The position numbers and the translations under genes are program-made. This document shows positions 37,679-60,262 of a DNA stretch of 64,000 nt, one piece after another. The notes under the pieces were generated by a model that saw only the letters and a list, made by a program, of their open reading frames with translations, did no database searches and was not told where the DNA came from. This DNA is from Lama guanicoe (taxonomy: Eukaryota): NCBI GenBank assembly GCA_013239625.1, contig MU057036.1:11252715-11316714 (forward strand), read 5' to 3'. Position 1 is the stretch's first letter. Every line of letters starts with the position of its first letter.

Positions 37679-38242
37679 AGCCCCGTGCTGTCGTCATCAC
37701 TGAGTCTGTGTGACGAACGTTGCTCATTAAGGATTTTTCACAACCCAGAACACAGGGCAAAACCTTTTTTCATAAAAGGCAGTGAGAGTGTATTTACTTT
37801 CAAGAGATCGAACCATTTCTTTTTGCATTGGAATCTGAGCTTCAGTCTTCTTGATTTACTGTCTGGTGGCCAGAGTCTACATTTCTGGAACTTTAATGTG
37901 CAGCTCAACCATCACTCCTTCAACATATATTTATGGAGAACCAGCTATATACTGGGCACGGGGCTGAACCACGCTATCAACCTGCTGGAGGGGTGGGTCG
38001 GCTGAGCGTTAGTGAGAAAGGAGAGAAAATACTGGAGACTTGACTAAAATGGGAATCCACAACTTTCAGGCATGGCCTTCATAGAGATGGGAAATGAGCA
38101 GGAAGCCCAGAGGTTACTTGGTCTTGTTTGCAGTCATTGTTCAGAAGGGAGCCTTTGCTGAAGTCCTAAATGTTGACTGAACTGAAATTTGTTCACGTTG
38201 CCTTATTCATTTTTCATGATGCTTTTTGTTCTTTTGGCCCAG

Positions 38243-38380
38243 AAACAGAAAAGATAGTCCTAGAGGCAGGAAATGGGTTGCCATCCTGGAAATTCAACGA
38301 CCAGCTTTTTCCCTGTGACGTGTGTGGGAAAGTGTTCGGCCGACAGCAGACGTTGTCCCGGCATCTCTCCCTGCACACAG
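38243..38380 (+). CDS. ZNF827: ZNF827 internal coding exon (138 nt, phase 1/1): (E)TEKIVLEAGNGLPSWKFNDQLFPCDVCGKVFGRQQTLSRHLSLHT, one C2H2 finger
   Basis: Polypyrimidine tract and ccAG at 38241-38242; donor G|GTGAGT at 38381; peptide recognised as ZNF827; joins in frame to the next exon (G|AG = Glu). Confidence 0.96.
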
Positions 38381-39009
38381 GTGAGTCGGGGCCTCACTGC
38401 CAGGCCTTCCCTCTCTCCATCGCCAGCCTCTCCACTACCAGCGAGCTGAGTTTCTCTAAGAGAATGATAACAGGAAGTGGTAGAAATGTTTTTCTCCTGA
38501 TCTACTTAAGCCATTTTCCTTGGCATGTTCAAATAAGGCTCTGGAAGGGGTCTTTTATTGTTATTGAAAAGACCCATTGAGTTCGAGTAGGACTGATGGG
38601 AAAAGATACACGTTTGGGTACGTTCCAGTAAAATTCCGCAACTCCAAGGAGTTTATTGCTCCCATCTTGTGGGCATCGGGGGTGGGGCTGCACCCCATCT
38701 TATTGGATTCATTTTACTGTGGTAGGGGGAGCAGAGAGGGGAAGAGCACCTTGGTGGAGAAACAGTCACTGTCTTTATGTTCGTGGAACAGTAGAGCCAC
38801 GTGGTTGGTTCTGTGTTGGGGAAGGGAAGACAGCCAAGTTAAGAAGGAGTCAAGGAAGGATAAATAGGAACTTAATCAATGCAGCAAGGATAAGCAAGAA
38901 CAAAAAGAAGTTAGGTCAAATCAGTAGTAACCAAAAAGCAAGATGGAAATAAGGAAATGAAGTGTTTCAGTTTTTACACAACAGACTTGTTAAAAATTCA
39001 AATGTGTCT

Positions 39010-39478
39010 CAGCCATCTGCAGCAACAGGGATGGACGTAGACATGATCGTACCCAGTGAAGGAAGTCAGACGGGGAAAGATGAGTATCGTATGATATCGC
39101 TTATAGGTGGAATCTAAAAAAAAATGAAACACGTGAACTTATTTATAAACCAGAAACAGACTCACAGACATAGAAAACAACCTATGGTGACCAAAGCGCA
39201 AAGGGTAGGGAGGAATAAATTAGGATTTGGGGATTAATACATATACTCTACTATATGAAAAATAAAGAGCAACTGCCCACTGTGCAGCACAGGAACTATA
39301 TTCAATATCTTCTAATAACCTATAATGGAAAAGAATCTGAAATATATATACACACACACATCCTTCTTCATATTCTTATCCATATGTGTATGTATAACTG
39401 AACCACTTTGCTGTGTACCTGAAACTAACACATCGCAAACCAACTATGTTTCCATTTAAAAAAATTTTTTGAGAAAAT
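39010..39478 (+). mobile_element. 5'-truncated L1 3' end
   Basis: GCCATCTGCAGCAACAGGGATGGAC...CTGAAACTAACAC; 16-bp TSD AAATTCAAAT(G/A)TGTCT at 38994-39009 and 39479-39494. Confidence 0.9.
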
Positions 39479-39499
39479 AAATTCAAATATGTCTTATTT

Positions 39500-41160
39500 A
39501 CAGGAAACACAAAACAAAATGGTAAAGAAAATAAAAGTTTTGTATGTCACACAAAATAACGAAGAAGGCTCAACAGGCAATATTCGTAGAAAAAGATTAA
39601 TTTTCTCTTTTTATGTATATATATATATTTTAATACTTTAATCTTAAATATTAAACCACTAAAGACAGAATTTAGTCACATACTTAGCCACAGAGGAAAC
39701 TTTCACATGTTCAAAAAAGTTGAAGCTCCTTAGGCCACATTCTCTGAGTGTAGTTAAATGAAATTTAAAATAACCAAAGATCTGATTGGAACAAGCTGAA
39801 GCTATGTTGATATTTGCAAGTGAGGGAGGCATTTGTTAATGAGATTTTTTTTCCCCCTTGGAAAGTTTCAAGGGAAAATAATATGACATGCAGAGAAAGG
39901 GAGCTGTACTGAAAATTAAAGGTGTGGATAAGTAATTTTTTTAATATGATATCTGTATATATATATATACACACACACATACATATTTTATTTGTTATAT
40001 TAAGTGCATTTCTGCTTATTAAAGCTTTCATGTAATACCAATATATCAAGTCAGTGTGCAAAATGACATAGTGGGGAGGCACTGCCAGCTGTAAGAAAAT
40101 CAACACATCAGTTCTGCAAAATATGTTAAACATCAAAAAAATTGCAGTCTACATAATAATCAGGAACACAAGAATGGTAAGCCATAACATATGATAAATT
40201 TAATAATAAAATGTTCTTAATGAAATGCAGAGTAATAATAATAAAATAAAATAACCAAGGGTCCATAAAATGTCCTATCTAATTGGATCAAAGAAAAGGA
40301 AGAAAATCAAATTGCAAATTGCAGACCTCTAGGAGGAGTGAAAGGAGAACACTTCACACCTCACCCTGGAGTAGGCAGTCACAGCTCTGTGCAAGGAGCA
40401 TTTACAGATATGAACGTTATAATTAGAAGAGAAGAAAGAAAAATAAAGGAACTTACCACCCATCTTAAAGAATTCGTGAGAGAACAAAATCTAGGAAGAA
40501 GAATATAAAATGGATAAATCCTTTTAAGTCCAAGAAGGAAAAAGGAGGCCAAAACATTCAAAATTGGCAATGAAAAAGGAAGCCTAATTCTCAATACAGA
40601 TGCCATTAAAGAACTGTTGGAGAATAGAGCAACTCTATGGCAAAAAAAATAAAAAATAAAAGCTGTAAACTTATTTTATTTTATTTTATTTTATTTTATT
40701 TTATTTTATTTTATTTTATTTTATTTTTAATTGAAGTACAATCAATTACAATGTGTCAGTTTCTGGTGTACAGCACAATGTCCCAGTCATGCATATACAT
40801 ACATATATTTGTTTTCATATATTTTGAAAGCTTTAGATGACATAGATAATTTAAGCAAAATTTCCAAAATTGGCCCAAGATGGAGTGGGGGGGAACTTAA
40901 GTAGATCAGTTACCAAAGGGTGACTTGGAAAGATGATGAAAGAAATACTACAAAAAAAAGGCATCAGGTCCAGAAATTGTCTCAGGTTAGTTCTTTTAAA
41001 AAAGCCTTTTGAGACTAGAAAATTCTGATAGTATTAAACTTTTCCAAATGACAGAAAAAGCTAGGAATCTCTACGATTCACTTTGTAAAGAAATCGTAAC
41101 CTTAATACCAAACTTAACAACCTCATTGATTAGTACAAGTGCAGAAATTCTAAAGAAAAG
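39500..41160 (+). mobile_element. Old degraded L1 (ORF2 region) remnants with a nested young L1 tail (40671-40825, -)
   Basis: A-rich strand; AGGCATCAGGTCCAGA and AACCTTAATACCAAAC ORF2 motifs; nested TTGAAGTACAATCAATTACAATGTGTCAGTTTCTGGTGTACAGC. Confidence 0.6.
40671..40727. repeat. (TTTTA)n microsatellite derived from an L1 poly-A tail
   Basis: About 11 consecutive pentamer units. Confidence 0.95.
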
Positions 41161-41915
41161 GCTCTAGTCTATCTGCACGATAGGGGATCCTCCCAGCCCT
41201 GCTGAGCCCAGGGCCACCGACACATCAGATGTTGGGGACCACCTGTTATAATAACAATGCCTTACATTTTGCTGCAGAAAATTTTTTTCTGCACTCTTCC
41301 CTGTGAAGGAGATAAGACAGGTATTTTCTTTAAGGCAAGCCCAGGATTGCAGAGTAAGAACTAAGGACAGAAACAGAAATTGTTCTTTCCTTGCTCTGTT
41401 ATCATCTGTTACCTTTATCTGGACCTGAGAGCAAAGCCTGCTCCTTTTACTTTAATTTGCTTGATGAGTCAAATGAATTCAGAATGCAACTCTGGAAGCA
41501 GTCCTGAAACATTGTCAATTTTACAAAAAAAAGGGGGGGGCTTCTATTAAGAAATCAATTGAAACTTTGCGTTTTATTTCTGTAGCATGAACATTTCCAG
41601 TTAAATCATTTCATCCAAGTCCTTTTTTCCCCCTTAGTTTCATTCTCTTTTGTTTCCTGGCCAACCCAGACTGGAGCTTAGAGAAAATGATGAGATTTCT
41701 CTTAAACACACCAATCCTGCGAACGCTGTGTCACAACCCTTCCCCCCCACCTCAGCACCCACCCTGGACCGACACACGGGGGAAGGAGGGCAGGCACACA
41801 TGATATTCTTTTAGCCCGATATTCTTTTAGCCCCCTGTGGGGCTCACCTTACCAGGGAGAGAGGGACCAGTAGGTATCCAGGGAAAAGCAGATGGTCCAG
41901 TTGCCCTGGGACTTT

Positions 41916-42045
41916 TTTTTTTTTTTTTTGGTGGGAAAGTAATTAAGATTATTCATTTATTTATTTTTATTGGAGGTACTGAGGATCGAACCCAGGACCT
42001 TGTGCATGCTAGGCATGCACTCTACCACTGAGCTATACCCTCCCC
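41916..42045 (-). mobile_element. tRNA-derived SINE (Vic-1-like)
   Basis: Minus strand reads GGGGAGGGTATAGCTCAGTGGTAGAG...GGGTTCGATCC; poly(A) tail; TSD GGGACTTT at 41908 and 42046. Confidence 0.9.
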
Positions 42046-42257
42046 GGGACTTTCTTTTATCTTTGAAAGTATTAACACAGGCGTGACCTGCCCAGTAGAG
42101 ACTTTTCGAATGTTTACAACTCCAAGGTGTTCCCTTTGTCCCCATTTGAAACGAGATTTCGAACTCTCTCCTTGATACCTTGAAGTGGTCTTTTGCAAGG
42201 TGTTGAGATTCCATTTCTGAGCATGGTTTGGGTTTTTTCCTGTTCCTTCTCCCCCAG

Positions 42258-42429
42258 AGGAAAGAAAATACAAATGCCACTTGTGCCCCTATGCTGCTAA
42301 GTGCCGTGCAAACCTGAACCAGCACTTGACCGTCCACTCGGTGAAGCTGGTGAGTACGGACACCGAGGACATCGTGAGCGCCGTCACCTCTGAAGGCAGT
42401 GACGGGAAGAAGCACCCTTATTATTACAG
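42258..42429 (+). CDS. ZNF827: ZNF827 coding exon (172 nt, phase 1/2): EERKYKCHLCPYAAKCRANLNQHLTVHSVKLVSTDTEDIVSAVTSEGSDGKKHPYYY(S)
   Basis: ttccttctcccccAG acceptor (42256-42257); AG|GTGAGC donor at 42430; C2H2 finger; translated by hand because this frame is absent from the ORF track. Confidence 0.96.
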
Positions 42430-43503
42430 GTGAGCCGCCAGCGGAGCCCACCCGGGCTGCCCAGACCTTCCCGAACACTCCCTGCCCCTCTGCTGGGGCA
42501 CACATGTCAAGGCATCTCTTCTCTGACACAGTGCTGACCTTCCTTTTCATATTTGGCTTTGCTTGGATTGAACCCTGTGTTGCACTGACTCCTCTCCCGG
42601 CTGGGTGGCCCTGAGAGAGTTAAGTAAAAGGGAGATGGTCTGCGGGGCGGAGCCCCGGAGAGTGGCAGGGCTGCTCCCGGGTGATTAGCTGTGAGGTCTG
42701 TGCGGCTGGGAAGCTCCCAGCTTCCTAACTGAGAACCTCGCTGCTTCCTGAGAATTATCTGAAGGAAAAATCAACCTGAGAACTCTGAGGAAATAGCCCT
42801 GGAAGTATTGCCTGCTTTCCCTTGGCTGTGTTATCCTTTAGTACCTGGAATTTTGTGTTTCTCTTCCATAGTCAACCATGAATCTATATTTGGTTTGGTT
42901 GCTGTAAAATCCCAAGTTTCAGACTTGCTGTTGAATCTTGCCCGAGAGACGGGCTATCCAGATGGGAGGAAACTTGCTAGCTGTGTTTGCACGGAATGTC
43001 TCCAAGGAGGGCAACTTCTACCAGGATGGTCACAGACAGGGCTTGCTCCTGCTCCGAGTGCCACCTGGATGTGCGTCCATTCCTGCATGGAAGGTTTGCA
43101 GAGCCAGAGAGGGGCTCACCAGGTGTGCGGGGCGCTCAAGTTTATCAGTGCACCAGCACCGCTAATATCTTGGCAAGGCTGCCCCGCATCTCTTTGCCCA
43201 AAGGAATCAGTTAGGTGTTGGGCAGCATCTGGAATCTGTAATTTTTCATTAGCTTTATGACTATTAGCATCATTAGAGCATGTATGGGATTGTTACATTG
43301 TGCTCCAACTTAGTCCATTTGGCACGGTGACCACATCAGAGGCGTCCCAGAAAGCGGAAGAATTTCCTAACGCAAAGGCTTTTGGTGGGAGGAAAACCTG
43401 GGTCAAGGCCTGGATTTCAGAGGGTCCCGAGTCCAACTGGATAGCTTCTATTAGGAAGATCACTCTTCTCTCTCTGCTTCTCTTCATTGCCCCTCTGGTA
43501 CAG

Positions 43504-43670
43504 CTGTCACGTGTGTGGATTTGAGACCGAGCTCAATGTCCAGTTTGTCAGTCACATGTCGCTCCACGTGGACAAGGAGCAGTGGATGTTCTCCATCTGC
43601 TGCACGGCCTGCGACTTCGTCACCATGGAGGAAGCAGAGATAAAGGCTCACATCGGCACCAAGCACACAG
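43504..43670 (+). CDS. ZNF827: ZNF827 coding exon (167 nt, phase 2/1): SCHVCGFETELNVQFVSHMSLHVDKEQWMFSICCTACDFVTMEEAEIKAHIGTKHT, two C2H2 fingers
   Basis: Long pyrimidine tract and cAG at 43502-43503; donor CAG|GTGACC at 43671; matches part of ORF 43487..43867; phases agree with neighbours. Confidence 0.96.
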
Positions 43671-45348
43671 GTGACCCTCCCTGTCTGTCCTTCGCACCCA
43701 TCTCTCTTTCAACCCCAGTCGCCCTCCCCACCCCGCCCCCCATTCCCCGGCAGGGGCATCCTCTTCACCAGGCGACACTGACATTTCCTTCCAGAAGGAG
43801 GGGCTTTCTCCGGGTGGTAGGGCCACTTCTCCCATTGTCTGGCCTGGCTTGTGCCGCGCTGATCTGACAGCCACACAAGCAGTTGAAGGGTGCGGGCTGT
43901 TGGCTTGTTCCTCATCCTGATCATCATCATTGTAGCCAGCAGTCATCCAGCTTTTACAATGTCCCAGGCTTGCGCCTTTGCGCTCTAGATCTCATTTAAG
44001 CTTAAAACAACCCTCTGCAGTCAGTACCATTGTCAGCATACTAGCCAGGGGGAGAAACTGAGGCTTCAGGTGTCCACCAGGATGTGACTCCAGAAACTCA
44101 GACCAGCACAGTTTCATGCTGGAGCCCACTCTCTGTATCACTGCTGTCCTGGCAGCCCCGTGCAGCCCTTGGCAGAGTTCTGCGCCTTTCTGTTTTATGG
44201 TGCCAGAGTACCGCAAACATCATTCTGCGGGCTGTGCTCCTCTTCCCTTGAACTGCAGCCCAGACACCCTCCAGAATGATGCCCTAGCAGTTCTGTCCAG
44301 AGATAAAGAAAACCGGCTTCTCCCGAAACAACCCAATGTCTCTCTTGGCTGCAGCCAAGACTTTGCCAGGGCTGTCCTTTCCTGTAAGGCTCTTGCCATG
44401 CTGGTTAACTTCTTCCATTTAATGATGTTAACATTTTGACTTCACCGTGCAATTGTTCTCTCCCAAGTGATGGTTACAAATGACACCAGCGCGGAGTCAT
44501 TAAATTAGGAGGAGGAGGAGATCCCGCTGTATTTCCCAGGGCTTCCAAGTTACACTGCTGACCACCAGCCCCAGGCGTTGGGTCAGCCCCCCGCATCCTC
44601 AGCACTTGAAGGATTCAGGAAGGGGAATCTCCCTGACGATGTGCACGGCCGTGAAGTCTCTGTGCTTTCCTGGCCGCTTTGGCTCCATGGTGCCAACAGC
44701 AATAAAAGCTTGTTTTTGTCAGTAAGTTGAGCAGCTATGACTCGGAGGTCTGCAGAGAGCCGTTAGGCTGAGTGAGAAGGTGCCGTTTTTACAGTCAGTT
44801 GTCTGACCGTAACCACATTAGCACCGTGGGCAGCAGGTGAGCTGGGAAACTCACATCGAAGACAAATTAAATTTAGCATTTCTGGAGTGGCCAGCCTCTG
44901 TTCCATTTCCACTGGCTTTTCAGGTATTCTTTTTTCTCTCTCTTTTCTATTACACGTCCTTTCTTCTCGCCCTCCCCACCCCAAAGCATGCCCACACCTA
45001 GCCGAGAACCTTCCCTTCCCCCTCCCCCCTCCGCAGCCCCCTCCACCACCACCTCCAGGAAACCATAGAAACCATAATGGCTGGAAGGAAGTTGGACTTA
45101 GAATCACTTGACTGTCATCACTGGAAACTTCACATTCACAAGTAACCGATGCAAACATACTTCTCAGTTGCCACGGGGAACACAGCGACGATCTGTTCCC
45201 TCTGAGGTGGTGGGGCTCCTGGTGTAGCGGTGTGTTAGCACAGAGAGCCGAGAGTGAGATGCACTGAAGGACTGTCTTTTCTAACACAGTAGAAGCCTTA
45301 AATGCTGCGGCTATTAGGGAATAAGGTTATATCCTATTTTATAAGCCA

Positions 45349-45570
45349 AGGGTGCTAGCAAGGGTTTTTCTTTTAAGGGCCAGATAGTAGCTATCTTAGA
45401 CTTTCAGGCTGTGCAGTTTCTGTCCCTGCTGTTCAGCTGTGCTGTTGGAATTGGAATGGAGCCCTGGACAGTATGCAAATGAATGGGTGTGGCAGCATTC
45501 CATGGGAGCTTTATTTACAAAGGCACAGAGGCTAGATTTGGCCCGAGGGTTCTAGTTGGCTGACCCCCAT
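45349..45570. mobile_element. MER58-like hAT-Charlie element
   Basis: AAGGGCCAGATAGTA...GCAAATGAATGGGTGTGGC...GATTTGGCCC...GCTGACCCC motifs. Confidence 0.8.
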
Positions 45571-45924
45571 TATAAGCTAAAAGGCCTCACAGTGAGGGTT
45601 TCTTGTCTTTTGCTGCTGCTTTGAGGTGGTTTTGACCCAAAATATATACATCTAAATTGTAATTAATAAGCTGTGCAGTTGCAAAGTTATGATATAAAAG
45701 CACTATGTATGCTATGTAATACAGACAATGTATATTCCTAAGAATAAGGAGTTTATCCAAGGCACGGCTGCGTCTCCAGCACCTGGACCCGTGGCTGCTT
45801 GGTGTGGGTGGAGAGAAACTTTCATCCAGTGAATGAATGGATGTGTGCAAATGCATCCACACACACGTGTGCATGCAAGTAAGAAAATTACTCAGCCATG
45901 GCCCTTGCCTAACCTTAGTATGTA

Positions 45925-46422
45925 CAGGCATACCTTGTTTTATTGCATTTTGCCTTGTTTCTTTTCGCAGATTTTTTTTTTTTAAGCAAATTGAAGATTT
46001 GTGGCAACCCTGCATCGGGCTAGTCTGTTAGCACCATTTTTCAACGTTTGCCGACTTTATGTCTCTGTGTCATATTTTGGTAATTCTTGTGATATTTTAA
46101 ACTTTTTGTTATCATTATATTTGTTATGGTGGTCTGTGGTCAGTGATCATTGATATTGCTGTTGCAAAGAAATTGTGCCTCGCTGAAAAAGGCTCAGATG
46201 ACAGCATTTTTTAGCAATAAAGTGCCTTTTAATTAAGGTATGTACATTTTTTTAGACATAATTCTGTTGCCCACTTAATAGACTACAGTGTAGTGTAAAC
46301 ATAACTTTTATATACACCAGGACACCAAAAAATTCATGTGTAAATTCATGTGACTTTATTGCGGTATTTGCTTTCTTGCTGTGGTCTGGAACCGACCCTG
46401 CAGCGTCTCTGAGGTCGGCCTG
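45925..46422 (+). mobile_element. Non-autonomous Tigger1 derivative (Tigger1a-like)
   Basis: TA-CAGGCATACCTTGTTTTATTGC...TTGAAGATTTGTGGCAACCCTG start; degenerate inverted end GAGGTCGGCCTG. Confidence 0.85.
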
Positions 46423-47939
46423 TGTGGAAGAAGTTACTGGGATGGAGGAGAGCACACACTGAATTCCAGATCCCGGTTCTAGACCCCATGTTACCGCAAG
46501 GCACTGCGAATGCAGGCACTCATGTTAACTTCTCTGGGCCTCCATCCGTTCCCTGAGGTTTTAAATGCGCAGGAGCTGCCGGACAGGCCTGAGATTCCCT
46601 GTGAGCCTCGTTCTCTCATCCAATTTACCTGTCGTAGGAACAGGCATCCTTCATTTCAGCGCCTTGGGAGATCTGAAATGCTTTCTTGGTACCTAATGAA
46701 GTTGTAATCTACAGCTTTGATCAATAGCAGGTTTTGGCTTCGATAAGTGGCCTATCTTGTGATTCTCCCACAGAATCCACGTGCTTTCTCATACCTCCTT
46801 ACTGGCAACTCTTACCCACGACACACTTGTGAGTCTGAAGAACTGTTCTCTGTTTGGTGTTTCTTCCTTCACACCTCCTTGCCCTCTGTCTGCCCTGGTC
46901 CTTGCGGAGGACATCAGCGAGGGAAAAGCAGTCCCTCTGGTGCTGTTGACTTCTCAATGCAGATTTTGCTGCAGTTTTTAAATGTTGCGATAATGGCAGT
47001 TGAGGATTTTGAATAGCTCTTTGGAAAAAACAACCATCAATAATTCACGTCACATAGATGCCAAAATAAGTGCCAGATGACTGACACAATCCCTGTTAAC
47101 CAAGCAGCCCCAGAAAGGCTTGAAGAAAATAGAATATTTATCACACTTACAGAGTGAGAAGGATCTGTAAAAGCTTAAGTGACGCAAGACATCTCAGAGG
47201 AAGAGGATCAAGGGATTCGACACAGGAACATTTCCTCTCTTTGCGAAAGAGAAGAAAAAGGGAAAACAAAAAACCACAGTCTGAAAAATGTGTTTGTAAA
47301 AATGACAAAAGGCCAATATATTCACAACATAGAAAATTTATGTAAACTGATAAACACTTTAGGTCATGAACAGTCAGTTCATCATAAAAGAAAGAAAAGC
47401 TAATCACTCAACGTCAGGGTAAGTGTTCAGCCTCGCTAGCAGTCAGCCTGAAACTCAGGAGTGGCTTATCTTTCACTATTAAGTTAGGAGCACGTCGCCC
47501 AGGTACCCACTGTTGCCAAAAGCGGCTGATTCTCTTGTGACGATGGCCCTGCAAAGTGGTAGGACTTTTGAAAACTAATGAATATTTACCGAGAGGCTGG
47601 AAAATGTAAGGCTCTGTGACCCAGTAATCCCACTTCTGAGAATTTATCTGTAGGGGAAAAAAAAAAACCGAAACAGTGGAATATTCATTTTAACTGAAAA
47701 TGTAATTTTAAGGCAATATTTAAATAAAGTAGGATCGGTCCACTCCATGGATATAATACTGTCATTTAAAACTATTAATTGGTAATTCTTCTTTTAAGTC
47801 TTGTGAGAGCCAACTCTGCTCCACGTATATCAAACAGCAAGGGAAAATGCAAAGTGTTCGTGGTTACTATCCTTATTGTATTTTGTAAATACTATATGTT
47901 ATATTTTATAATATAATAATAATGACATATTCTTCAATA

Positions 47940-48170
47940 ATCCTTACCACGAGCCAGGCATTGCTCTTAGTGCTTTGCATGTAAAAGCCCATTTAATCCT
48001 CACAACAAACATATGAGGCAGGTGCTGGAATTAGCCCCTTTTTTTAGATGAATGAGATAATTGAGGCACAAAGTTAAATCGTTGTCCCAGGTCATACAGC
48101 TACTAAGGGGTATAGGTGGCATTCAAAGTCAAATATTCTGAATCTGAAGTCCTTATTCTGAACCACTATG
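47940..48170 (-). mobile_element. MIR
   Basis: GCCAGGCATTG...CATTTAATCCTCACAACAA...TTAGATGA...TGAGGCACA...AGGTCATACAGCTA. Confidence 0.8.
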
Positions 48171-48189
48171 CAATTAATGGCAATACCTT

Positions 48190-48410
48190 TATTTATTTAC
48201 TTTGAATTTTCTTTTTCATTGAAGTGTAGTTGATTTACAATGTGAGTTACAGGTGTACAGCAAAATATTCAGTTGTACATATAGATACATAGATACTTCC
48301 TTTTCAGATTCTTTTCCCTTATATGTTATTACAAGAAACTGAATATAGTTCCCTGTGCTATACAGTAGGTCCTTGTGGTCTATCTATTTTGTATATCGTA
48401 ATGTGTATCA
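48190..48410 (-). mobile_element. L1 3' end fragment
   Basis: ATTGAAGTGTAGTTGATTTACAAT...CCCTGTGCTATACAGTAGGTCCTTG; same family as the copies at 22965 and 33560. Confidence 0.85.
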
Positions 48411-49983
48411 ACAGTTTTAAAATAGATGCTTACCTTGAGGGGGGGTAGCTTAAAACCACAGAAATTTATTATCTTACAGTTCTCCAGGTCAGAGTCTCAG
48501 ACTAGTCTTACGGGAATAAAATCAAGATGTTGGTGAGGCTGTGTTCATTCTGAGACCTGAGGAGAGATCAGTTTCCTTGAGGTGCTTCCTTTTTAAAAAA
48601 TAAAAAGAAGAACACCAGAAATATAATGGTGCTTGTACTGAGACAGCAAATTGGTTGGTACTCTTTTATAAAGTCTCAGTTTCTCAACGTGTGTCATTTT
48701 CAATTAGAAAATCTTCAGATTTTTAAAGTTCTCTTTAGTTGGCCGTCCTAGTGTTTGAGGTTGCATTACCCGTGCATGGGTGTCGTTCACCAGAAATCTC
48801 TGTGATGCTGAAGATCAGTGACCCCTGGGATCACAATGACAGCCTTGGGTTGGGTTGATAAGGATACCCTGGCTCACTCCTTAAGAGAGACTGGAAGGAG
48901 ATGGGGACCGAGAGGAGAGGATGCCAGATAGACCTGCAATTACAAATCGAGCAGGCTGGGCTGTTTCCCAAAGTGCCTTCTGTGGCACCTGGATATTTGT
49001 AAATTTATTCATTTAGGTAGCTCTCCTTGGTGCCATAAGCCTGAGGGTACTTGGAGCTGTTCTCCAAGGTGGTCATTAAAATTATCTATTTTAACTTGAA
49101 AAACAAGATTAAAATAACCATCCGCAATATTCTGCTGGTCAGGCCAGTCTTAGAGAATGGATTTGGCAAACAGCGTCAGGGACTCAGGACTCCCACTGAA
49201 AATATTCTCTTTGTCTACAAAATGTGACTGAGCTGGTTACATATTTAGATAAGAGACTGGCAGTAATGGTGCTGGCTTTCCTTGTACCAAAAGAAGAGTA
49301 TATGGTAAAGGTATATACTCCCTAAGGGAGGTCACGTACTCAACCAAGTTCATTTCCGCTAGGGAACAAGATTTTAAAAACTATAAACTGAAGTAAGAGT
49401 TGTCCGCTCTGGGCATATGGGCAGGTCTGACTGGAACAGGACTTAAAATCTTATAAGCAGGTAAATAGTTCTCCTTCCTCTTTTTAAAAACTTTTTTTTT
49501 GGTTGGAAAAGTAACGTGTGGTCACTCTAGAAAATTTTGAAAACCAAATCAAAGAAAACAAGTCTAATGCTGATCATTTCTCACACTAGCTGTGACCACC
49601 GTTACATGTTTGTTTACTTCTGGACTTTTTATGCCCATATAAAAAATGTGACTTGTTTTTTTATCCCCTAATAAAGGAAGTTTGTTTCTAGAGTTTACAA
49701 TCACTTGATGACTTAATTGACCGATGTGAAGGGAACTGAAGCACGGTCTTACATTTTCTACCGTAACCTGAAATTATGGGGTTGCATTGAATTGGCTTGG
49801 GGAGAATTGATGTCTTAACTATATGGAGTCTCCTGAACATGAAGAGTGTATATAGCCCTCCAGTTATTTGGGGTTTATGGTGTACATTTTTTATTTATTA
49901 CTGTATATGTCAAGTGATATTATAACACTTCATAGATAGTATGAGAACTGCACAATGATTTCTCCTCTCTCAGCCTTTATGTT

Positions 49984-50270
49984 TTTTTTTTACATTTTTA
50001 TTGATTCATAATCATTTTACAGTGTTGTGTCAAATTCCAGTGTTCAGTACAATTTTTCAGTTATACATGGGCATATACACACTCATTGTCACATTTTTTT
50101 CTCTGTGATTTATCATAACATTTTGTGTATATTTCCCTGTGCTATACAGTGTAATCTTGTTTATCTGTTCTACAATTTTGAAATCCCAGTCTATCCCTTC
50201 CCACCCTCTACCCCGCCCCCCCCCCGGTAACCACAAGTCTGTATTCTCTGTCCATGAGTCCATTTCTGGA
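49984..50270 (-). mobile_element. Young L1 3' end
   Basis: Poly-T, L1 3'-UTR complement and G-rich tract on the minus strand; TSD CTTTATGTT at 49975 and 50271. Confidence 0.88.
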
Positions 50271-50339
50271 CTTTATGTTATTGTTGTCATAAACCTATTA
50301 TACCTGTTTTAAGAAGAAAAACTCATCTATCCATGTGGT

Positions 50340-51860
50340 CATCATGTCTAGTGTTCTTCATTCTTTTGTGTAAATCCATTTTTCACAGGTGGTGTCTTTT
50401 TCCTTCTGCCTGAAGAATTTCTTTTAACATTTCTGGTAATTTGAGTCTGCTGGTGATGAATTCTTTCAGCTTCTTTTTTTTTTTTTTCTTTGCTTTTGTA
50501 TTTGAAATATATTTTCACTGGATGTAAAGTTTCAGGTTGACAGTCATTTCTTTCATTGCTTAACATCCAGGGAGAAATCTGCTGTATGCTTATTTTTGTT
50601 CCTCTGCACATAACGTATCCTTTCTCCTCTGGCTGCTTTTAGGATCTTTTTCTTTATCACTGGCTTTGAGCAGTTTGATTACGATGTGCCTTGGTATAGA
50701 TTTCATCATCTTCCTGGTGCTTGGGGTTTGTTGTGTTTCTTGGATCTCTGGGTTTGTGGTTTTCCTCAAATTGGGAAAAATTTTGGCGTTTTCAAATATT
50801 TTTCCTGCCCTCCCCACCCCATAAGGGACTTCAGTAAAACCTATATTAATCTACCCGAACAGGTAGCTCACTGATTCTCTTTTCATTTTTCGTGGTTCTT
50901 TTTTCTGTGTTTCATTTCAGATCATTTCTGTTGCTAGTATCTTCAAGTTCACTTATCTTTCTTCTGCCATGTCTAAATTGCTGGCAGTCCCATCCAGTGT
51001 ATTCTTCATCTCTGACACTGTAATTTTCAACTCTAGAAATTTAGATTGGGTCTTTTTAATCTCTTTTATATCTCTGCTTAACTTTTTGAGCATACGGAGT
51101 ACAGTTACCAAACCTGTGCTTACATCCTTGTCTGCAGATTCTAGCAACTTTGTCAGTTCCGAGTCAGTTTTGATTGGTTGCTTATTCTTCCCATTTGGGG
51201 TTGTGCTTTCTCGTTTGGCATGCCTGGTAATCTTTGTTTATATGTCAGACATTGTGGTTTTTCCCTTCCTGGGTGCTGGATATTTTATATTCCTAGAAAT
51301 ATTCTTGATCTTTGTCTTAGGATGCAGTTAATTACTTGGAAACTTTGATCCTTTTGGGGGTTTCTGGCTTTAATGATTTGTCAGGCGGGTCTGAAGCAGT
51401 GACCCCTCTAGGGCTAATCAGTACCCAGTGTTAAAAGATCTTTCTTGATTTTCTGCCCAATGCCTCAGGAATTATGAGGTTTTCTAATCTGGCCATTGGA
51501 AATGGACCCTGTTCACTAAGCCTTTCATATGGCTTTTTTTTCCCTCCAACTTTGGGCAATTTCCTCACACACATGCTCTGATCCCTACACTGCTGAATGC
51601 CCTCGGGGGAACCCTCTGCAGGTGTCTGAGTTCCTCTCCTGTGCTGCTCTGTCCTGCAAAGCCCTGTCATGTTGATGTCCTCAAATCCTCAGCTCTCTCT
51701 TCTCATCTCAGTGAGTCTGCTGGGCAGGTCCCCATCCCGGCACTGCAGCCTGGGAAGAAACGTCTCTCAAGGCAGGAAGCAGGACAGTCGGAGGGCCCAC
51801 CTCTTTTCTTTCCTCTCTCTCAGGGGTCCCTCTTCTTCACTGCCTTGTATCCAATGCTGT
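50340..51860 (-). mobile_element. Old L1M 5' region with frameshifted ORF1
   Basis: Minus-strand ORFs give L1 ORF1p-like peptides (FLELKITVSEMKNTLDG; NPEIQETQQTP...PRHIVIKLLK; CQPETLHPVKIYFK). Confidence 0.88.
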
Positions 51861-51879
51861 GACAACCACTGATGAAGAA

Positions 51880-52100
51880 GACGGACCCTAGAGCCTGACC
51901 AACTGAAATCTCTGCTCTGCCACTTCCTAGCCATGTGACTGAGGCCAAGTTAACCTGACTGCCTCCTTCCCCTCGTCTGCAAGATGGGGGTGACAACAGT
52001 CATGCCTCTTTGGGTTTTGGAGAGGATAAAATGAGATAATGCATTGCAAGCATGACACAGTTCCTCACACTCAGTAACATGTCCATCTTAGCTATTATTG
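51880..52100 (+). mobile_element. MIR
   Basis: CTCTGCCACTTCCTAGCCATGTGAC...AAATGAGATAATGCAT...TTAGCTATTATTG. Confidence 0.8.
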
Positions 52101-52354
52101 TCATTTTTATCTTAATTATTAAAAGATCCCAATAAACACTTGTCAAATAAATGAATATCTACTCCTGGCCCATGAACCACAAGTACCCTCACCACAGGTC
52201 CAGCACTGGGACAGCTGGAAACCTCAGCCTGTGCTCCCTGAGTGATGATGTGGCCATGAGGCCCCAGCTCCCTGCCCCCATCACTGCTGTTATTCTAGGG
52301 TTTTCATCTCCTAAATAACAGACCTGGGGTTTCTTTGTTTGTTTTAATTTTCAG

Positions 52355-52546
52355 GGGAAGACAGGAAGACCCCCAGTGAATCAAACAGCCCCTCTTCATC
52401 CTCCCTCTCCGCTCTGAGTGATTCAGCCAACAGCAAGGACGATTCCGACAGCTCCCAGAAAAACAAGAGCGGAAACAACCTGCTGGTCATCTCGGTCGTG
52501 CCCGGGAGCCAGCCCTCACTGAACAGCGAGGAAAAGCCAGAGAAGG
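52355..52546 (+). CDS. ZNF827: ZNF827 coding exon (192 nt, phase 1/1): GEDRKTPSESNSPSSSSLSALSDSANSKDDSDSSQKNKSGNNLLVISVVPGSQPSLNSEEKPEK, Ser-rich linker
   Basis: tttgttttaattttcAG acceptor (52353-52354); donor G|GTAAGG at 52547; open in the required phase. Confidence 0.95.
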
Positions 52547-52903
52547 GTAAGGGAGGAGGTAGGCTGGCCAGCTCAGCCCTACACGGTGTCGGGGGATGTG
52601 CAGTCTTAAGAATAAGCCCTTGAGAGAAGCGATGTTGGAAAATAAATACGAAGCCTGAGAACAACCTAATATGTATCATCTACAATTTGGGTGTGTTTTT
52701 TTGGCTTCATTTACATCCCAGTGCAGGGTGGAAGGATGGGGAGTGTGGTATTAATTCCGCTAACTCCTTTTAGCATGGAGATGCAGGGCACAGTACCTGG
52801 AAGGGTCTAGCTAGAGGGGAGCAGGAGCGGGGAGGGCTGCCCGACTCCCGGCCTCCTGTTCCTCTGCCCCACGCACCTGTACACCCAGTCTTGGTCCTTT
52901 CAG

Positions 52904-53081
52904 GGTTCGAATGTGTTTTTTGCAACTTTGTCTGCAAGACGAAGAACATGTTTGAGCGCCATCTGCAGATACACCTCATCACCCGGATGTTTGAGTGTGA
53001 CGTGTGCCACAAGTTCATGAAGACCCCTGAACAGCTGCTGGAGCATAAGAAATGCCACACTGTCCCCACCGGTGGGCTCAA
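52904..53081 (+). CDS. ZNF827: ZNF827 coding exon (178 nt, phase 1/2): GFECVFCNFVCKTKNMFERHLQIHLITRMFECDVCHKFMKTPEQLLEHKKCHTVPTGGL, two C2H2 fingers
   Basis: cctttcAG acceptor (52902-52903); donor AA|GTAAGG at 53082; matches ORF 52891..53085. Confidence 0.96.
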
Positions 53082-56000
53082 GTAAGGAAAGCAAGTACAG
53101 AACCTTTTACTGTGTTGTTATTAAATACCCTTTCCCCAGCCCTGCCCCATCCCCCACCTGAAGGTTTTGGGGGTCATGGGGAGGGGGTTTGGCATGGGGG
53201 GAGTTAGGCACCTCGGCTGCCTTTAGCTGGAGAGGAATAGACCTGTCTCCCAGGGGTCAGCAGATGTCAGTAGGAAAGTGCATTCCACAAATATGCCGGG
53301 ATTCCCGGCAAGCAAGACAACTCGTTGAAGCAACTCGGCATGAGCACGCAAGGGTAGACTCATCCTCCGCTGTTTGAGTTTTGTCCAGACTTGATTTTAA
53401 GGGACTTGGGGTTAGGGTCCTCACGTGTAAATTATTACGCTGTCACTGCACTTCACCATCTCTGTTTTTTCAGATGATTTGCCACAAGTCTTCTAAATAA
53501 GCATTACAACCGCTCCATCCACACCCACCCACAAATACTGGATCTTTTGTCAGTTTGAACAGACAGGAGGCAACTTTTTTTTTTTTATGCAAAGATCATC
53601 TGCCTCCTGTCTTCCTGCCTTCCCAGGAACTGGAATTGGGATGTCCCTGGTGTAGCCTTCATGAGATCTGATATTTCCGGACACATGTTAGTCACAGATC
53701 CCCAAAGACCTAGACACCAAGCATCATCATTAACCAATATTTGCAAGGAGCCCTCTGGTCTGAAGTGAGACCCATCAGTTATTAACGAATGCACTGTGTG
53801 TCTGGCTTGATAATAGGTGCTAAAGGGCAAACAAAGAATAAAACATAATTTCCACCCTTGGGAAACGTTCGTCCGAACGCTACCAGAATTTAATCCCAGT
53901 GCTTCTAAAATCAGAGTCCCAGTCTCAAGGTGCTCACAGGCTAGTAAAGAGAGAGAAGCATGTGTCACTGGGGACAAAAACACACATCAACTTCCAGGCC
54001 TAATTATTCATGTTTAGCTAAGATGATCATGTAATTAAAAGAATGAAACATGATGTTTTACTTAAGAAAAAAATTTATTTTTAAACATTTTTATCTTTGA
54101 AACTCACAACTTGCCAGAGAGGTGGCGTGACTTTTCTGAATGGCCAAGGCCTGGAGAAATCCACTTGCCCAAGGAGCAGCACCTGCTGTTGGATCCCACT
54201 TTATTTCACTCTGGGGAGAGGGGCGATTAGGTGGGAGGGGTGGGGAAGAGAAGAAGAATGGGGGGAGGGGTGGTTAATGCCTAGCAAGAGCTTATTTGGG
54301 AATTTGATTTGTTTTGTTCCCACTGTCCCTTTCTAAACATTTGTGTACTTTTACCCTAAAAAAAAAAAAAAGAGCCATGTATTTATGTGGTTGGACTAGC
54401 ACCCATCCCTGTTCCCAGTAGCCCAGTCACACCCATTAACTGCGGCCCCGGCCAGTTGTGGCTTCGCCAGTTAGGTCCCCTTTTCTTTGGGGACCTCAGG
54501 AGTCCGGAGCCTCTGGCCCACTGGGGAGAATGCACAGTGAACGCTGATGCTTTTGCGGATACAGACACTTCCCGTTCGGTGCTAATNNNNNNNNNNNNNN
54601 NNNNNNNNNNNNNNNNNNNNNNNNNNNNNNNNNNNNNNNNNNNNNNNNNNNNNNNNNNNNNNNNNNNNNNNNNNNNNNNNNNNNNNNNNNNNNNNNNNNN
54701 NNNNNNNNNNNNNNNNNNNNNNNNNNNNNNNNNNNNNNNNNNNNNNNNNNNNNNNNNNNNNAGCACGGAAAAACCCTTAGCACTTTGCCTGAGCCGCGAA
54801 AGAAAGANNNNNNNNNNNNNNNNNNNNNNNNNNNNNNNNNNNNNNNNNNNNNNNNNNNNNNNNNNNNNNNNNNNNNNNNNNNNNNNNNNNNNNNNNNNNN
54901 NNNNNNNNNNNNNNNNNNNNNNNNNNNNNNNNNNNNNNNNNNNNNNNNNNNNNNNNNNNNNNNNNNNNNNNNNNNNNNNNNNNNNNNNNNNNNNNNNNNN
55001 NNNNNNNNNNNNNNNNNNNNNNNNNNNNNNNNNNNNNNNNNNNNNNNNNNNNNNNNNNNNNNNNNNNNNNNNNNNNNNNNNNNNNNNNNNNCGGCGGGCT
55101 TGGCGCTGAGGAGCAGTGCACGGTGCACTTGGTGTGTTGGGCTCTGCTGGACACCTCTCCAAACCCTCCGAGGACAGTTCACTCGTGGGCCCTGCCCTGC
55201 AGGTGCCGAGCGAGAGCCGAGGCAGCCACTTTTGCACTTGCCTTCTTTTTGTAAAGAGAGCACACACGCCACAGCTATCATATCAGCCACCGACTCGAGC
55301 CTGGCAGCTTCTGCGAGCGCAGCTCAGCAGAACTTGCAGAAACATGCCCTCCCTGCCTGCCTCGCCCCTTTGGACAGCCAGCGGGGCTGGGGGCAGCGCA
55401 GCCTCACTGCGTAGAACGGAGAGGCCCAGGCTCGGTCCCAGCGCACAGCCAGCTAGAGCCCGACAAGGTGACAGAGCTGGGACCAAAATCAGCCCTTATG
55501 GAATCTGCCTAAATTACGTGTACAGACCAGTCCAGTAGTGAATCAGTACCCACCATGTGCTGAGTCCTCTACCGAGCACTGCAGAGAATGCAGAAGAAAT
55601 GGGAGATATGGTCCTGCCCGATGAGAATTTACGATCCCCTTGGATTATTATTTCCATGATGTAATAAGGCACTCATAATGTCTTCAAGCTCCAGATAGCA
55701 GCTGTCCCCCTTCCTCCTGAGTCCCTCATTCGTAGGTAGGCTGGTGGGTGGGCCTCCTTCTCCTGAGCCCAGGTTCTGGTCCTCACCTCCCTTCCCTATG
55801 GAGACCCAGTGCTGTAGGAGCCAGGTTTGACCAGTACAGATCTCTGTGTACACACGCACTCCCACACACAGTGACACACACAGGCCTTCTCATCCTAACC
55901 ACCCTTTAATAAGCACGACTCTGACCCCTACGACTTTCTGTTTGCTGGAGGTAGCTCTCCCCACTATAAGCTGTTCTTTAAAACTCTTAGCCTTTCTGCG

Positions 56001-56199
56001 TGTGCTTGGTGTGGTGCATGAAAAGTCGATTCTTTGTGTTGCTCCCATCTCGAGGGGAGGTCGTGAGGTTTAGACCTCGGCTGTGTCCAGTGGGGAGCGG
56101 GGAGGGCTCTGAGGGGCGGGGCGGGGAGGATGGGGGGGAGCAACAGCTTATCTGGTCCTGGCACTGTCTCTGCTCCCCTTCCTGAGGGCTGGCGTCCGC

Positions 56200-57270
56200 T
56201 CTTGCAGCCAGGAGACCCCCGAGCAGGCCCGAGGGAAGGCTCTGTCGGCAACCAGAGCCTAAGAGGGTCCTCTTCATCCCTCCGGAGGCGGCAGGGCTGG
56301 GCTGGACAGGGGGCAGGCCAGGCCTCAGGCTGGGGAGGGCGTCCAGAGGGAAGGCTGGTGAGGCGGGTAGCAACCGGGGGACCGCAGAGCCCGCGCGGCT
56401 GACCCTCCCTGTCCNNNNNNNNNNNNNNNNNNNNNNNNNNNNNNNNNNNNNNNNNNNNNNNNNNNNNNNNNNNNNNNNNNNNNNNNNNNNNNNNNNNNNN
56501 NNNNNNNNNNNNNNNNNNNNNNNNNNNNNNNNNNNNNNNNNNNNNNNNNNNNNNNNNNNNNNNNNNNNNNNNNNNNNNNNNNNNNNNNNNNNNNNNNNNN
56601 NNNNNNNNNNNNNNNNNNNNNNNNNNNNNNNNNNNNNNNNNNNNNNNNNNNNNNNNNNNNNNNNNNNNNNNNNNNNNNNNNNNNNNNNNNNNNNNNNNNN
56701 NNNNNNNNNNNNNNNNNNNNNNNNNNNNNNNNNNNNNNNNNNNNNNNNNNNNNNNNNNNNNNNNNNNNNNNNNNNNNNNNNNNNNNNNNNNNNNNNNNNN
56801 NNNNNNNNNNGTCTTCAGCCGCCATGTCAAGAAGCACCAGAGCGCGGACTGCCCCGAGGAGGACAAGAAGGGTCCGTGCCCGGCCCCCGCCAAGGACGCC
56901 GCCGGCCCTGGGGCCCCGCTCCTCGTCGTCGGGAGCTCCCGCCACCTCCTGTCTCCCCTGTCGGTCATGTCCGCCTCCCAGGCTCTGCAGACCGTGGCCC
57001 TGTCGGCCGTCGGCGGGGGCGGGGGCGGGGGCGGCTCCGAGCCCAGCCTGGCACTCAAGGCCTTGCCCTTGAACGGCTCCCCTTTGCGCTTCGACAAGTA
57101 CCGGAACTCGGATTTTGCCCATCTCATTCCCTTGACCATGTTGTACCCCAAGAACCAGCTGGATCTCACATTCCACCCTCCCCGACCTCAGACTGCGCCG
57201 CCCAGCATCCCCTCCCCGAAACACTCCTTCCTCGCCTATCTCGGACTAAGAGAAAGAGCGGAGACTGTCT
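56200..57270. other. GC/CpG-rich island over the last splice acceptor and terminal coding exon
   Basis: Visibly dense CpG and high GC compared with the AT-rich introns; partly hidden by the gap. Confidence 0.65.
56415..56810. other. Assembly gap hiding the start of the terminal exon (other gaps: 4834-5037, 54587-54761, 54808-55091, 58206-58333, 58571-58725, 60263-60424)
   Basis: Runs of N. Confidence 0.99.
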
Positions 57271-57272
57271 GA
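56811..57272 (+). CDS. ZNF827: ZNF827 terminal exon coding part (long isoform), 5'-partial because of gap 56415-56810: VFSRHVKKHQSADCPEEDKKGPCPAPAKDAAGPGAPLLVVGSSRHLLSPLSVMSASQAL...HSFLAYLGLRERAETV*
   Basis: 153 uninterrupted codons from the gap edge to TGA at 57270-57272; strong G/C third-position bias; starts with the HxxxH end of a C2H2 finger; branch-point-like CTGAC (56399-56403) and a pyrimidine tract run into the gap. Confidence 0.85.
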   Translation, partial: VFSRHVKKHQSADCPEEDKKGPCPAPAKDAAGPGAPLLVVGSSRHLLSPLSVMSASQALQTVALSAVGGGGGGGGSEPSLALKALPLNGSPLRFDKYRNSDFAHLIPLTMLYPKNQLDLTFHPPRPQTAPPSIPSPKHSFLAYLGLRERAETV

Positions 57273-60262
57273 GGGCAGCCAGGCTCTGTACCAAAAACCA
57301 AGAGACAGACAAAAACAAACAAAAACAAAACCCACAAAACTTAAACACAACCCCAGCAGGTGTATGTTGCTGCAAAACCTACAGACTCCCATGGGTCTGA
57401 ACCACGTGTACTGTATATCTTTAGTAAGGAATAGAGAATTGGCTCTGTGTGTATACCTATTGCATTGACCTGAAAGCTGCTTTATCCAGTCTTCAGAGAG
57501 GTGACCTACTGCGCCCGTCTACCTTCAGAGGCATGCCTCCCCAGCCACCCACTCCCACTCAGCCCTCCTCGGTCCTTTTATCTGAAAGGAAATTTGTCTC
57601 GTTAAACCCTGAAGGGAGTGTCCTTACTAGCAATCAGCCCTTGTAAGCTTCTACACCGGTGCATTTTATTTTCCGTTGGGTGAATGTAGTGAGTGGGCGT
57701 TTGTGGATTTGGAAAGAGACCTCCGTGTGTCCTGTGCCGGGACATTTGCACATTCTTTGTACTGGCTTCTTTCACAGCGATGAACATTCTCTCCCCTCCC
57801 CACCCCACCCCCCAGGACTTTCATCCACGCCAGTCACTTCCCTGAGCTCCCTCAGTACCTTCCTCTATTTTATGGCTACAGAGTGGTAGGGCCTGGTGCT
57901 TAGTCGATGAAGGAACGGTGGACATCCTCAGTGCTGCCTGAGATTTCCCACAAGAGTCCTGGAGACCATGTGCTCCGATCTCTGGTCATGAAGACACTAG
58001 TCATCAAGAGCCCTCGTGTGGAAGAAATACCTCGCAGCACTGCAGCCCACATCACAAAACTCCAGTGTTTTGTGTGTGTGTCCATACGTATGCAGTGTGT
58101 ATGCTACACACACACAGTGCATCATTTTTTAAGGGCAGATTATATATATATATGATGTATTAAGTCATGGTTACCATTTGTTTGCAGGAAAAGAAAAATT
58201 GTATGNNNNNNNNNNNNNNNNNNNNNNNNNNNNNNNNNNNNNNNNNNNNNNNNNNNNNNNNNNNNNNNNNNNNNNNNNNNNNNNNNNNNNNNNNNNNNNN
58301 NNNNNNNNNNNNNNNNNNNNNNNNNNNNNNNNNNGTGCTTTGGTCTTGCACTAGTTTTTGTTTCTCATCTGCAAAAAAGAAAAAAGTAAAATAAAAGGAA
58401 GAAAATGTACCTTTTTTATGGAATGAGTAGACTGTATGTTTGAAACTTTTGTCACAACCTCTTTGACATATAACGACCCAACAAAAAGGTGCTGTTTAGT
58501 CCTACGGTTCAGTTTATACCCCTGAGACGTTTCCATTGTGTTTGCGGATTGTCTGGCTATGGCGGTATTCNNNNNNNNNNNNNNNNNNNNNNNNNNNNNN
58601 NNNNNNNNNNNNNNNNNNNNNNNNNNNNNNNNNNNNNNNNNNNNNNNNNNNNNNNNNNNNNNNNNNNNNNNNNNNNNNNNNNNNNNNNNNNNNNNNNNNN
58701 NNNNNNNNNNNNNNNNNNNNNNNNNGGTGGGTTGCATAGCCCCTTTGCTGTTCTTAAAAAGCAATGGGTATGTAAGAAGAAGAAAAGGAACAGAATCTTT
58801 GGCTAAATATGTTAATGGCTTGTATTTTTAAGACAACAGGATTTCCAGGATGAAACAGGCTGAAAGAGCAGGGAAAAAAAATGTGCTTTGTATAACAATG
58901 GGAAGTTTGGAATATAAAAGTTGTATCTATTATTTATCTATCGAAGAACTGGTGTATGGAAGGAATGCTTTCTTACTGCGTTGCTGTTTTCCATCATGTG
59001 TTATCCTAGAGTTGGGATTTTTTTTTTCCGTCTGTTTCACCAGGGGAAAATAAAAGCGTCCCTAATTTTCTTCCTCTAGTCAGTTTGCTTCACTGAAAGC
59101 TCCCCCTTGAAACTGGTACCGTTGTACAGGAAGCCAGAAGTCTGTAACTTCTGTCCACACCATGGTCCTCCCCCGTACCCACCCTTCTTCCCCCAGACTT
59201 AGCAGGTGTGCTAACACTTCCCTTGGCCAGTCATCCAGCCCTGGCAAAGCTGTTTACACTAAGGAGATGTCCCCAGGGGCAGGGAGGCTGAGCCAGCTAG
59301 GGCGGGAAGCTCCCGCACCCTCGGTCATCTTCCAGCAGAGACATTTGTTCTTGGCCACGTTTGACACGTCATTCAACGTCGCCCTCGTGATGTCTCGGTA
59401 AAAGACACTATAGACAGTTATAGACAATACACTCCAAGAATACTGGGCTTCTGGGTTTGTTGGTGTTTTTTTTTTAAAGTCATGTCTTTATCCCCATTTA
59501 ATGGAGAATGTGCCACTTGGCTAATCTTGTGCTTTCAAAATTACAAGTTCAGTGATAACAGGAAAGGAGGCCACGGTGATCCCACAGGGGCTGGCAGAGA
59601 GGCGTGAGCACCAGCAGGTTAAAAACCTGAAGGGTGGCCCTGGCAATTAGGACTGCAGACTTTACAGTGTGCCACTTGTGCAATACAAGGTCCTAGGGTG
59701 AAAGCTGCAAGATCAAGAGGGGCGTTGGAAGGAGATGGTTACCGCTCAAATGCTTGCCACTGAACTTGTATTTGAATGACTTAGTTATGCTTAATGTAAT
59801 TGGGCAACGTTTTTTAGCACTTTGGAAAGAGTCATCAGTCTTTCTGGTAAATTATAAAAGTTTTCTGAGTGAGAAAAGGTGTGTTTGGAGTTTGTTTGAC
59901 TTTTTATATTATTATTGTTATTAATAAAGAAAAATCTACAGCATTTTTCAGATTCCACCCAGGTAATATGTACCCCTGAATTTGGTTTGCAGTTTGATAC
60001 TCAGGGAAGGATGTATTCCATAGATATCCTTTCCGTGTAAAACACTAACATCTTTGAGATATTCACCTGCCAACTAACTTCAATTCTGTTTTCACTATGC
60101 ATTCTTCAATGAAAGCTAGCTTATTTTTCCATATAGTAATGCAGTTAGAATTCTCAGAACTTTCTTCTATCCTTTTTTTTAACTCCTCATATTATGTTCA
60201 GATGATCATACTGTCAAGGTTTGTGTACATTACTGAAAATTTGTATTGTATAAAGCTTTTTT
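57273..60262 (+). other. ZNF827: ZNF827 3' UTR (end probably in or near gap 60263-60424)
   Basis: Follows the stop codon; no recognisable interspersed repeats; AATAAA at 58390, 59049 and 59923; UGUA-rich stretch at 60220-60257 before the gap and a GU/U-rich stretch after it. Confidence 0.7.
59923..59928 (+). promoter_or_regulatory. Candidate polyadenylation signal AATAAA
   Basis: Canonical hexamer with a U-rich upstream context; actual use is unknown. Confidence 0.4.

Follow-up and report, generated by a model that had tools for sequence, protein, structure and literature searches.

Does ZNF827 end after nine zinc fingers, or does a further exon encode additional fingers and a C-terminal tail? 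This question is raised by a stretch of 64,000 nt from Lama guanicoe (contig MU057036.1, positions 11,252,715 to 11,316,714 of the forward strand; hereafter, the window). A sequence-only reading of the window had proposed that an open frame near its 3′ end, in a region that short isoforms would treat as 3′ UTR, is the end of an extended ZNF827. Translation of positions 56811-57272 gave 153 amino acids and a TGA. The peptide begins with VFSRHVKKH, the end of a C2H2 finger, and terminates with AETV; 144 amino acids follow the last His pair, exactly as had been claimed. The GC content at third codon positions (GC3) of this frame is 0.83 (0.64 and 0.52 in the other two frames), a value attained by 0 of 60,000 shuffled frames. 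Thus, the coding-type GC3 bias described earlier is real. We dropped the length of the open frame as coding evidence because 2,683 of the 60,000 shuffled frames (4.5%) were equally free of stop codons; a second forward frame across 56811-57272 is likewise open. The ratio dN/dS, for which a neutral value near 1 would have spoken against the proposal, was 0.154 between the window and a bird (144 codons; dN 0.161, dS 1.04), and 27, 16 and 65 differences fell on codon positions 1, 2 and 3, respectively. We regard 56811-57272 as almost certainly the conserved coding end of the last ZNF827 exon, which belongs to the long isoform. Peptides predicted from the long isoform include NSDFAHLIPLTMLYPK and HSFLAYLGLR, and the expected masses are about 148 kDa for the long form and 119 kDa for the short. 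A 289-aa open frame returned by the own-genome search was set aside, since it may come from reading through N.

The layout of the gene in the window was determined by tblastn with a whale long isoform. Fingers 4-9 were located at 38236-53082 and the tail at 56811-57269, on the same (+) strand and in order. The window does not reach back to fingers 1-3 and the N-terminus, which are encoded further upstream. Three upstream exons with fingers 4-7 occupy 38236-43711 (approximate bounds, from tblastn and C2H2 patterns), and are followed by a Ser-rich linker exon at 52355-52546, which has 78% DNA identity to the bird locus. The next exon (52904-53081) contains fingers 8 and 9 and encodes the same residue as the bird in 58 of 58 codons, with a dS of 1.1. 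It ends with PTGGL plus AA at a phase-2 donor (CTCAA/GTAAGG at 53081), and the junction residue is K (AA/G). Beyond the last intron, the visible part of the last exon comprises the end of finger 14 (VFSRHVKKH, 56811-56837), the tail (56838-57269) and the stop codon TGA (57270-57272), which is placed identically in bird and human. Fingers 4-14 extend over 19 kb of the window. The 3′ UTR, taken provisionally as 57273-59945, has AATAAA at 58390, 59049 and 59923, and its similarity to the bird reaches about 57670. Two intronic stretches gave additional matches. Positions 47089-47163 are 68% similar over 25 residues to a segment of a tamarin gene model and contain a stop in the window; the tamarin counterpart is probably a mispredicted exon. 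Positions 56018-56410 share similarity with the beginning of P0004, an ab initio protein (43% across 157 columns), and with a portion of a tamarin model. Because of these similarities, 56018-56410 is taken as conserved among mammals; it is probably non-coding. The projection of a weak human PhyloCSF region falls at the start of 56018-56410.

The beginning of the last exon reads N in this assembly. The N run is 396 nt long (56415-56810), so that fingers 10-13 and most of finger 14 would lie under N in this genome, and only the final 9 residues of finger 14 are visible. As described earlier, a CTGAC (56399-56403), which is a candidate branch point, and an 11-nt pyrimidine-rich run adjoin the N run (56399-56414 together). 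Because the TGA within CTGAC is an in-frame stop, the frame cannot begin upstream of the N run. To place the acceptor, we used the spacing in orthologues: counted from the first Cys as far as the F of FVFSRH, 116 of 118 orthologues have 123 residues (120 were counted, 2 were dropped for want of the anchor, and 2 of the 118 did not match). Since this corresponds to 124 hidden codons, the exon start was set at 56438. A bird genomic contig (L001, one of 65 candidate stretches) possesses the same donor and an AG/G acceptor, with the V codon 373 nt further on. In the bird intron, a TGAC is followed by CTGTCC 25 nt ahead of the acceptor; the predicted distance in the window is 23 nt. The N run can therefore be divided into 23 nt of intron and 373 nt of exon (bird, 25 + 373), a division that shows consistency, not proof. 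We infer that the acceptor of this genome is at 56437/56438, with the rest of the pyrimidine tract and the AG at 56415-56437 and the first 373 nt of the last exon, encoding fingers 10-13 and most of finger 14, at 56438-56810. In human, a PhyloCSF parent region of 282 codons is arranged likewise, as 1 + 124 + 148 + 9 (PMC6886504, as far as its available tables go). The sequence-only reading had anticipated an acceptor just inside the gap, 120-130 hidden codons, 4-5 more fingers and about 270-280 added residues; orthology and the bird locus now predict that acceptor, and the orthologues give 124 codons and five fingers, with 277 residues of the protein of this window beyond the junction lysine.

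A search with the 153-residue peptide returned 175 protein matches among 2,293 candidates. Among the 120 matches listed, query coverage was 99-100% and identity 55-88%; they range from mammals (primates on) to sharks and nearly all are named ZNF827. The closest orthologues compared are those of whales, which agree with the window at 145 of 153 residues. Across 93 unique peptides of the last exon, the invariant columns number 103 of 134 in fingers 10-14 and 28 of 138 in the tail. Intact orthologues with the 124 codons come from primates, rodents, bats, whales and marsupials. Two elephant records finish in a shifted frame, while further records from elephants have the frame complete. In one sheep model, fingers 10-11 carry several differences.

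Of 319 proteins compared, 294 contain the PTGGL anchor. PTGGLK continues directly into CPFC in 215 of these 294; the others have an NSGQW insert first (8), other inserts (6), a sheep long form binned separately (1) or short ends (64). Because this protein set was gathered with the tail as bait, the ratio of long to short forms is uninformative on abundance. The mouse long ORF (1346 aa) is complete on 15 contigs, none longer than 4,742 nt, and that of vervet (1349 aa) on 5 contigs, none longer than 6,458 nt. Because fingers 4-14 span 19 kb in the window, we infer that these contigs are spliced transcripts. In the guanaco, 56811-58200 is partly present in 21 of the 24 RNA runs listed for this species; this listing, from which six rows were left out (three with a small share and three with no words), records presence only, and shows neither junction nor frame.

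These results bear on whether the exon might belong to another, small zinc-finger gene or might be an artefact of alignment. Database entries with this exon alone do exist under other names: the last-exon-only or partial models P0040, P0038, P0308 and P0310 are named REST factor, ZNF891-like, ZNF64-like and ZNF22-like, and the 'REST factor' cluster has 217 members. However, 215 of the 294 anchored proteins run straight from PTGGLK into CPFC, the tail has a single match in its own genome, and a search of 1.84 billion representatives gave ZNF827-like proteins alone. The spliced full-length contigs of mouse and vervet contradict a separate gene as well, and we give this idea practically no credence. 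The exon is an ancient and real coding exon of ZNF827. It is not a new system, because the long form is already predicted: as the earlier reading had guessed, more than 100 database records (RefSeq models and TrEMBL) hold it. The predicted long proteins of mouse (A0A571BE87, 1346 aa), vervet (XP_037848563, 1349 aa), chicken (XP_040556205) and Xenopus tropicalis (XP_002938981) have the same exon, junction and stop. The window shares 123-145 of 153 residues with mammalian predicted long ZNF827 proteins that contain the whole tail. The sole difference is a Gly-rich insertion common to whales and deer. This GC-rich poly-Gly insertion (57014-57036) in the tail varies in length in whales and deer and is absent in primates, rodents and birds. 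No curated NP_ record was present among the cluster members listed, and no human record in the protein listings. The earlier reading had called the long form an extension. The spliced coding exon that this implied is found in orthologues; the long form itself seems to be the main, conserved product and not an addition to a shorter one.

A published classification disagrees with this conclusion. The human orthologue of the window tail, peptide for peptide, is a PhyloCSF candidate at chr4:145760752-145761126, which ranks 266 of 73,812 with a score of 8.7 per codon (PMC6886504, Supplementary Data S1 and S6). In the available part of that 2019 GENCODE study, the region is filed as a 'pseudo-exon', a class defined there by lost coding sequence. 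According to this classification, an ancestral coding sequence would no longer be translated in mammals and would now be the 3′ UTR of a nine-finger gene. The curators' call itself favours this, the human region overlaps three annotated transcripts (PMC6886504), and nine fingers were counted for ZNF827 in a biochemical study (PMC10933417). In contrast, the human tail peptide in the table of PMC6886504 is itself intact and ends with AETV-stop; the 125 human codons displayed there carry no such loss, although the definition calls for one. In the window the visible frame is intact, with a dN/dS of 0.15. The mammalian orthologues with their 124 codons and the spliced long ORFs of mouse and vervet also stand against loss of the coding sequence. 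We therefore consider a pseudo-exon very improbable and read chr4:145760752-145761126 as live coding sequence. Because the table gives the row type 'Extension', the finger part of the parent region overlapped the GENCODE v23 annotation (PMC6886504).

How, then, do the short proteins arise? Among the 64 short ends in the 294 anchored proteins, 27 are K-stop, 20 NSGQW-stop, 6 NLCSRxTK-stop and 2 KxVVSFRLL-stop, and the rest are others; these ends agree with the earlier statement that short isoforms stop a few residues past PTGGL. Reading through the donor at 53081 gives AAG TAA, that is, K-stop, which is widespread. Other lineages have their own short ends, such as KQRLV... in a bird and NTSYRPW... 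in lizards. A 1074-aa ORF ending in NSGQW-stop was found on 2 contigs, each of at most 4,863 nt, and NSGQW-stop is kept from platypus to whales. Short proteins would arise by two routes, inclusion of a small exon with a stop codon or read-through of the donor, and either would cut the array after finger 9; in such transcripts the last exon would serve as 3′ UTR.

The first 35 nt of the last intron (53082-53116) are identical to the bird at 33 of 35 positions, in contrast to 13 of 35 after the previous donor. This difference suggests a regulated splice choice, and we consider 53082-53116 a candidate splicing control element. A second GT (CAA/GTAC) is located 13 nt downstream of 53081 within the conserved 35 nt (L001 3168-3202), and its use would also give K-stop. 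ATTAAA or AATAAA hexamers are present in the last intron at 53120, 53837 and 54034 and could end K-stop transcripts early; that at 53120 has no exact bird counterpart. In the bird intron, from L001 4138 onward, an AG is followed by a KQRLVSSSVVP-stop frame, which matches the start of a cuckoo short isoform; this is a bird-specific stop cassette. The mammalian cassette (NSGQW, NLCSR or VVSFRLL) was not found in the readable last intron with one mismatch allowed, and may be missing or lie under N. Assuming that no net indels intervene, projection of three weak human PhyloCSF regions puts them at about 54927-55090 and 55979-56065.

These short ends may have another meaning, which is compatible with our best explanation: they may be a regulated off-switch, in which stop cassettes direct transcripts to nonsense-mediated decay and the nine-finger protein is scarce. 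The short ends of mammals, birds and lizards differ, so they are not like a conserved functional end; the 33/35 identity past the donor and the bird's own stop cassette also fit. However, complete short ORFs assemble in transcript-sized contigs, NSGQW-stop is preserved from platypus to whales, and none of the papers searched pairs ZNF827 with 'poison exon'. On balance, we judge the off-switch rather unlikely.

The explanation that we prefer, and hold to be highly probable, is that the 153-codon frame is the conserved coding end of the last exon and that its predicted splicing to the donor at 53081 likely adds five fingers and the 144-residue tail. The splice would create the linker TVPTGGLK between fingers 9 and 10, so that fingers 8-14 would form one seven-finger array. 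The five additional fingers and the tail probably help to aim ZNF827, which recruits NuRD, at DNA. In 206 proteins longer than 1,150 aa, the C2H2 pattern occurred 14 times in 163, 13 times in 33 and 10-12 times in 10. The linkers within fingers 8-14 are 6-8 residues long in the seven proteins printed. In the orthologues, fingers 10-14 each show the pattern C-x2-C-x12-H-x3/4-H, five patterns in all, and the bird last-exon peptide matched Pfam PF00096 and PF13465 above the cut-off. Fingers 12 and 13 are joined by TGERPF, the only canonical TGERP linker of the protein. The finger 13 helix, RKDNLNL, and the finger 14 helix, HPFVFSR, are each present in 163 of 163 fourteen-finger proteins, and RKDNL is shared with finger 2. 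An R/D/N helix like that of finger 13 is typical of base-reading fingers in the C2H2 code. Under this code, the R (-1), D (2) and N (3) of the helix would favour an nAG triplet, which we offer as a lead only.

No Pfam family was found for the tail, which is mostly predicted to be disordered. Of the 1.84 billion representatives searched, 5 matched the tail, all ZNF827-like, and an Atlas search with a bat tail homologue gave no usable match. The AlphaFold prediction for the bird last-exon peptide had a pTM of 0.21 and a mean pLDDT of 52, with values above 60 only at about residues 51-140. Three blocks of the tail (LLSPLS..SASQALQ, AHLIPLT and KHSFLAYLGL) are conserved and resemble short motifs for docking. 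We also considered a PDZ motif at the C-terminus of the tail, and a 14-3-3 site at its RPQTAP, and rejected both because key positions vary among orthologues. Among 60 of 70 structure matches shown, there was no solved structure of fingers 10-14 or the tail; CTCF, ZNF568, ZBTB7A, Ikaros/Helios and BCL11A showed generic tandem C2H2 similarity (best E 3.5e-32), and their binding specificities are not transferable to fingers 10-14.

What the additional fingers bind is a separate issue. By the sequence of their helices and linkers, we lean slightly towards fingers 12-14 binding double-stranded DNA by sequence while the tail motifs dock partners, taken jointly. The exon may instead be coding while its fingers act on RNA, single-stranded DNA or proteins, a possibility that we rate as appreciable without favouring it. 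It draws on the binding of nine-finger ZNF827 to single-stranded and not to double-stranded DNA (PMC10933417, in the available text), on the reported co-precipitation of nine-finger ZNF827 with circular RNA, and on the helices of finger 10 (RPAAMEC), finger 11 (NQLELE(M/T/V)) and finger 14, which are unlike typical base readers. However, the TGERPF linker between fingers 12 and 13 and the base-reader-type helix of finger 13 point to double-stranded DNA, and the binding assays used a clone described with nine fingers (PMC10933417).

That 2024 biochemical study, in its available text, gives ZNF827 nine fingers; its work, with OriGene clones, detected no binding to double-stranded DNA. Fingers 1-3 form the principal cluster for nucleic acids and account for most binding to single-stranded DNA (PMC10933417). 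This nine-finger protein is the product of the same gene, with fingers 4-9 encoded in the window, and has neither fingers 10-14 nor the tail. The 'second cluster, ZnF4-9' described for it stops two fingers into the seven-finger array of the long form. Published studies of ZNF827 deal with telomere lengthening, with the ATR response and with EMT splicing, and the gene also lies at a locus for vascular disease. Among the openly available papers that we searched, no title or abstract listed dealt with a 14-finger ZNF827 and nothing paired ZNF827 with PhyloCSF; the 'long isoform' match listed concerns an isoform of hnRNP L. The accessible portions of PMC13161183, PMC7657652, PMC11306022, PMC10368422, PMC11679916, PMC8352204 and bioRxiv 2026.02.17.706266 do not mention a longer ZNF827 protein.

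We put forward a broader proposal tentatively, at somewhat short of even weight. The principal ZNF827 of jawed vertebrates, human included, may have 14 fingers and bind DNA in a sequence-specific manner. The nine-finger form, on which telomere, ATR and NuRD work has relied, would then be a truncation that severs the seven-finger array, which would explain the absent double-stranded DNA binding. How much of each form is made would depend on a conserved splice switch at the last intron, and the 'dead exon' would be 272 live human codons. The interest of the locus lies in the conflict with the published pseudo-exon call and the nine-finger biochemistry; the sequence itself is not new. Finger 13 is as invariant as fingers 1-3. 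If the 14-finger form predominates, add-back and binding assays with nine-finger clones omit a fifth of the protein, including finger 13. If the proposal is true, human variants in the 272 codons could be misread as 3′ UTR variants, and those in the last exon would be missed when called on the short transcript.
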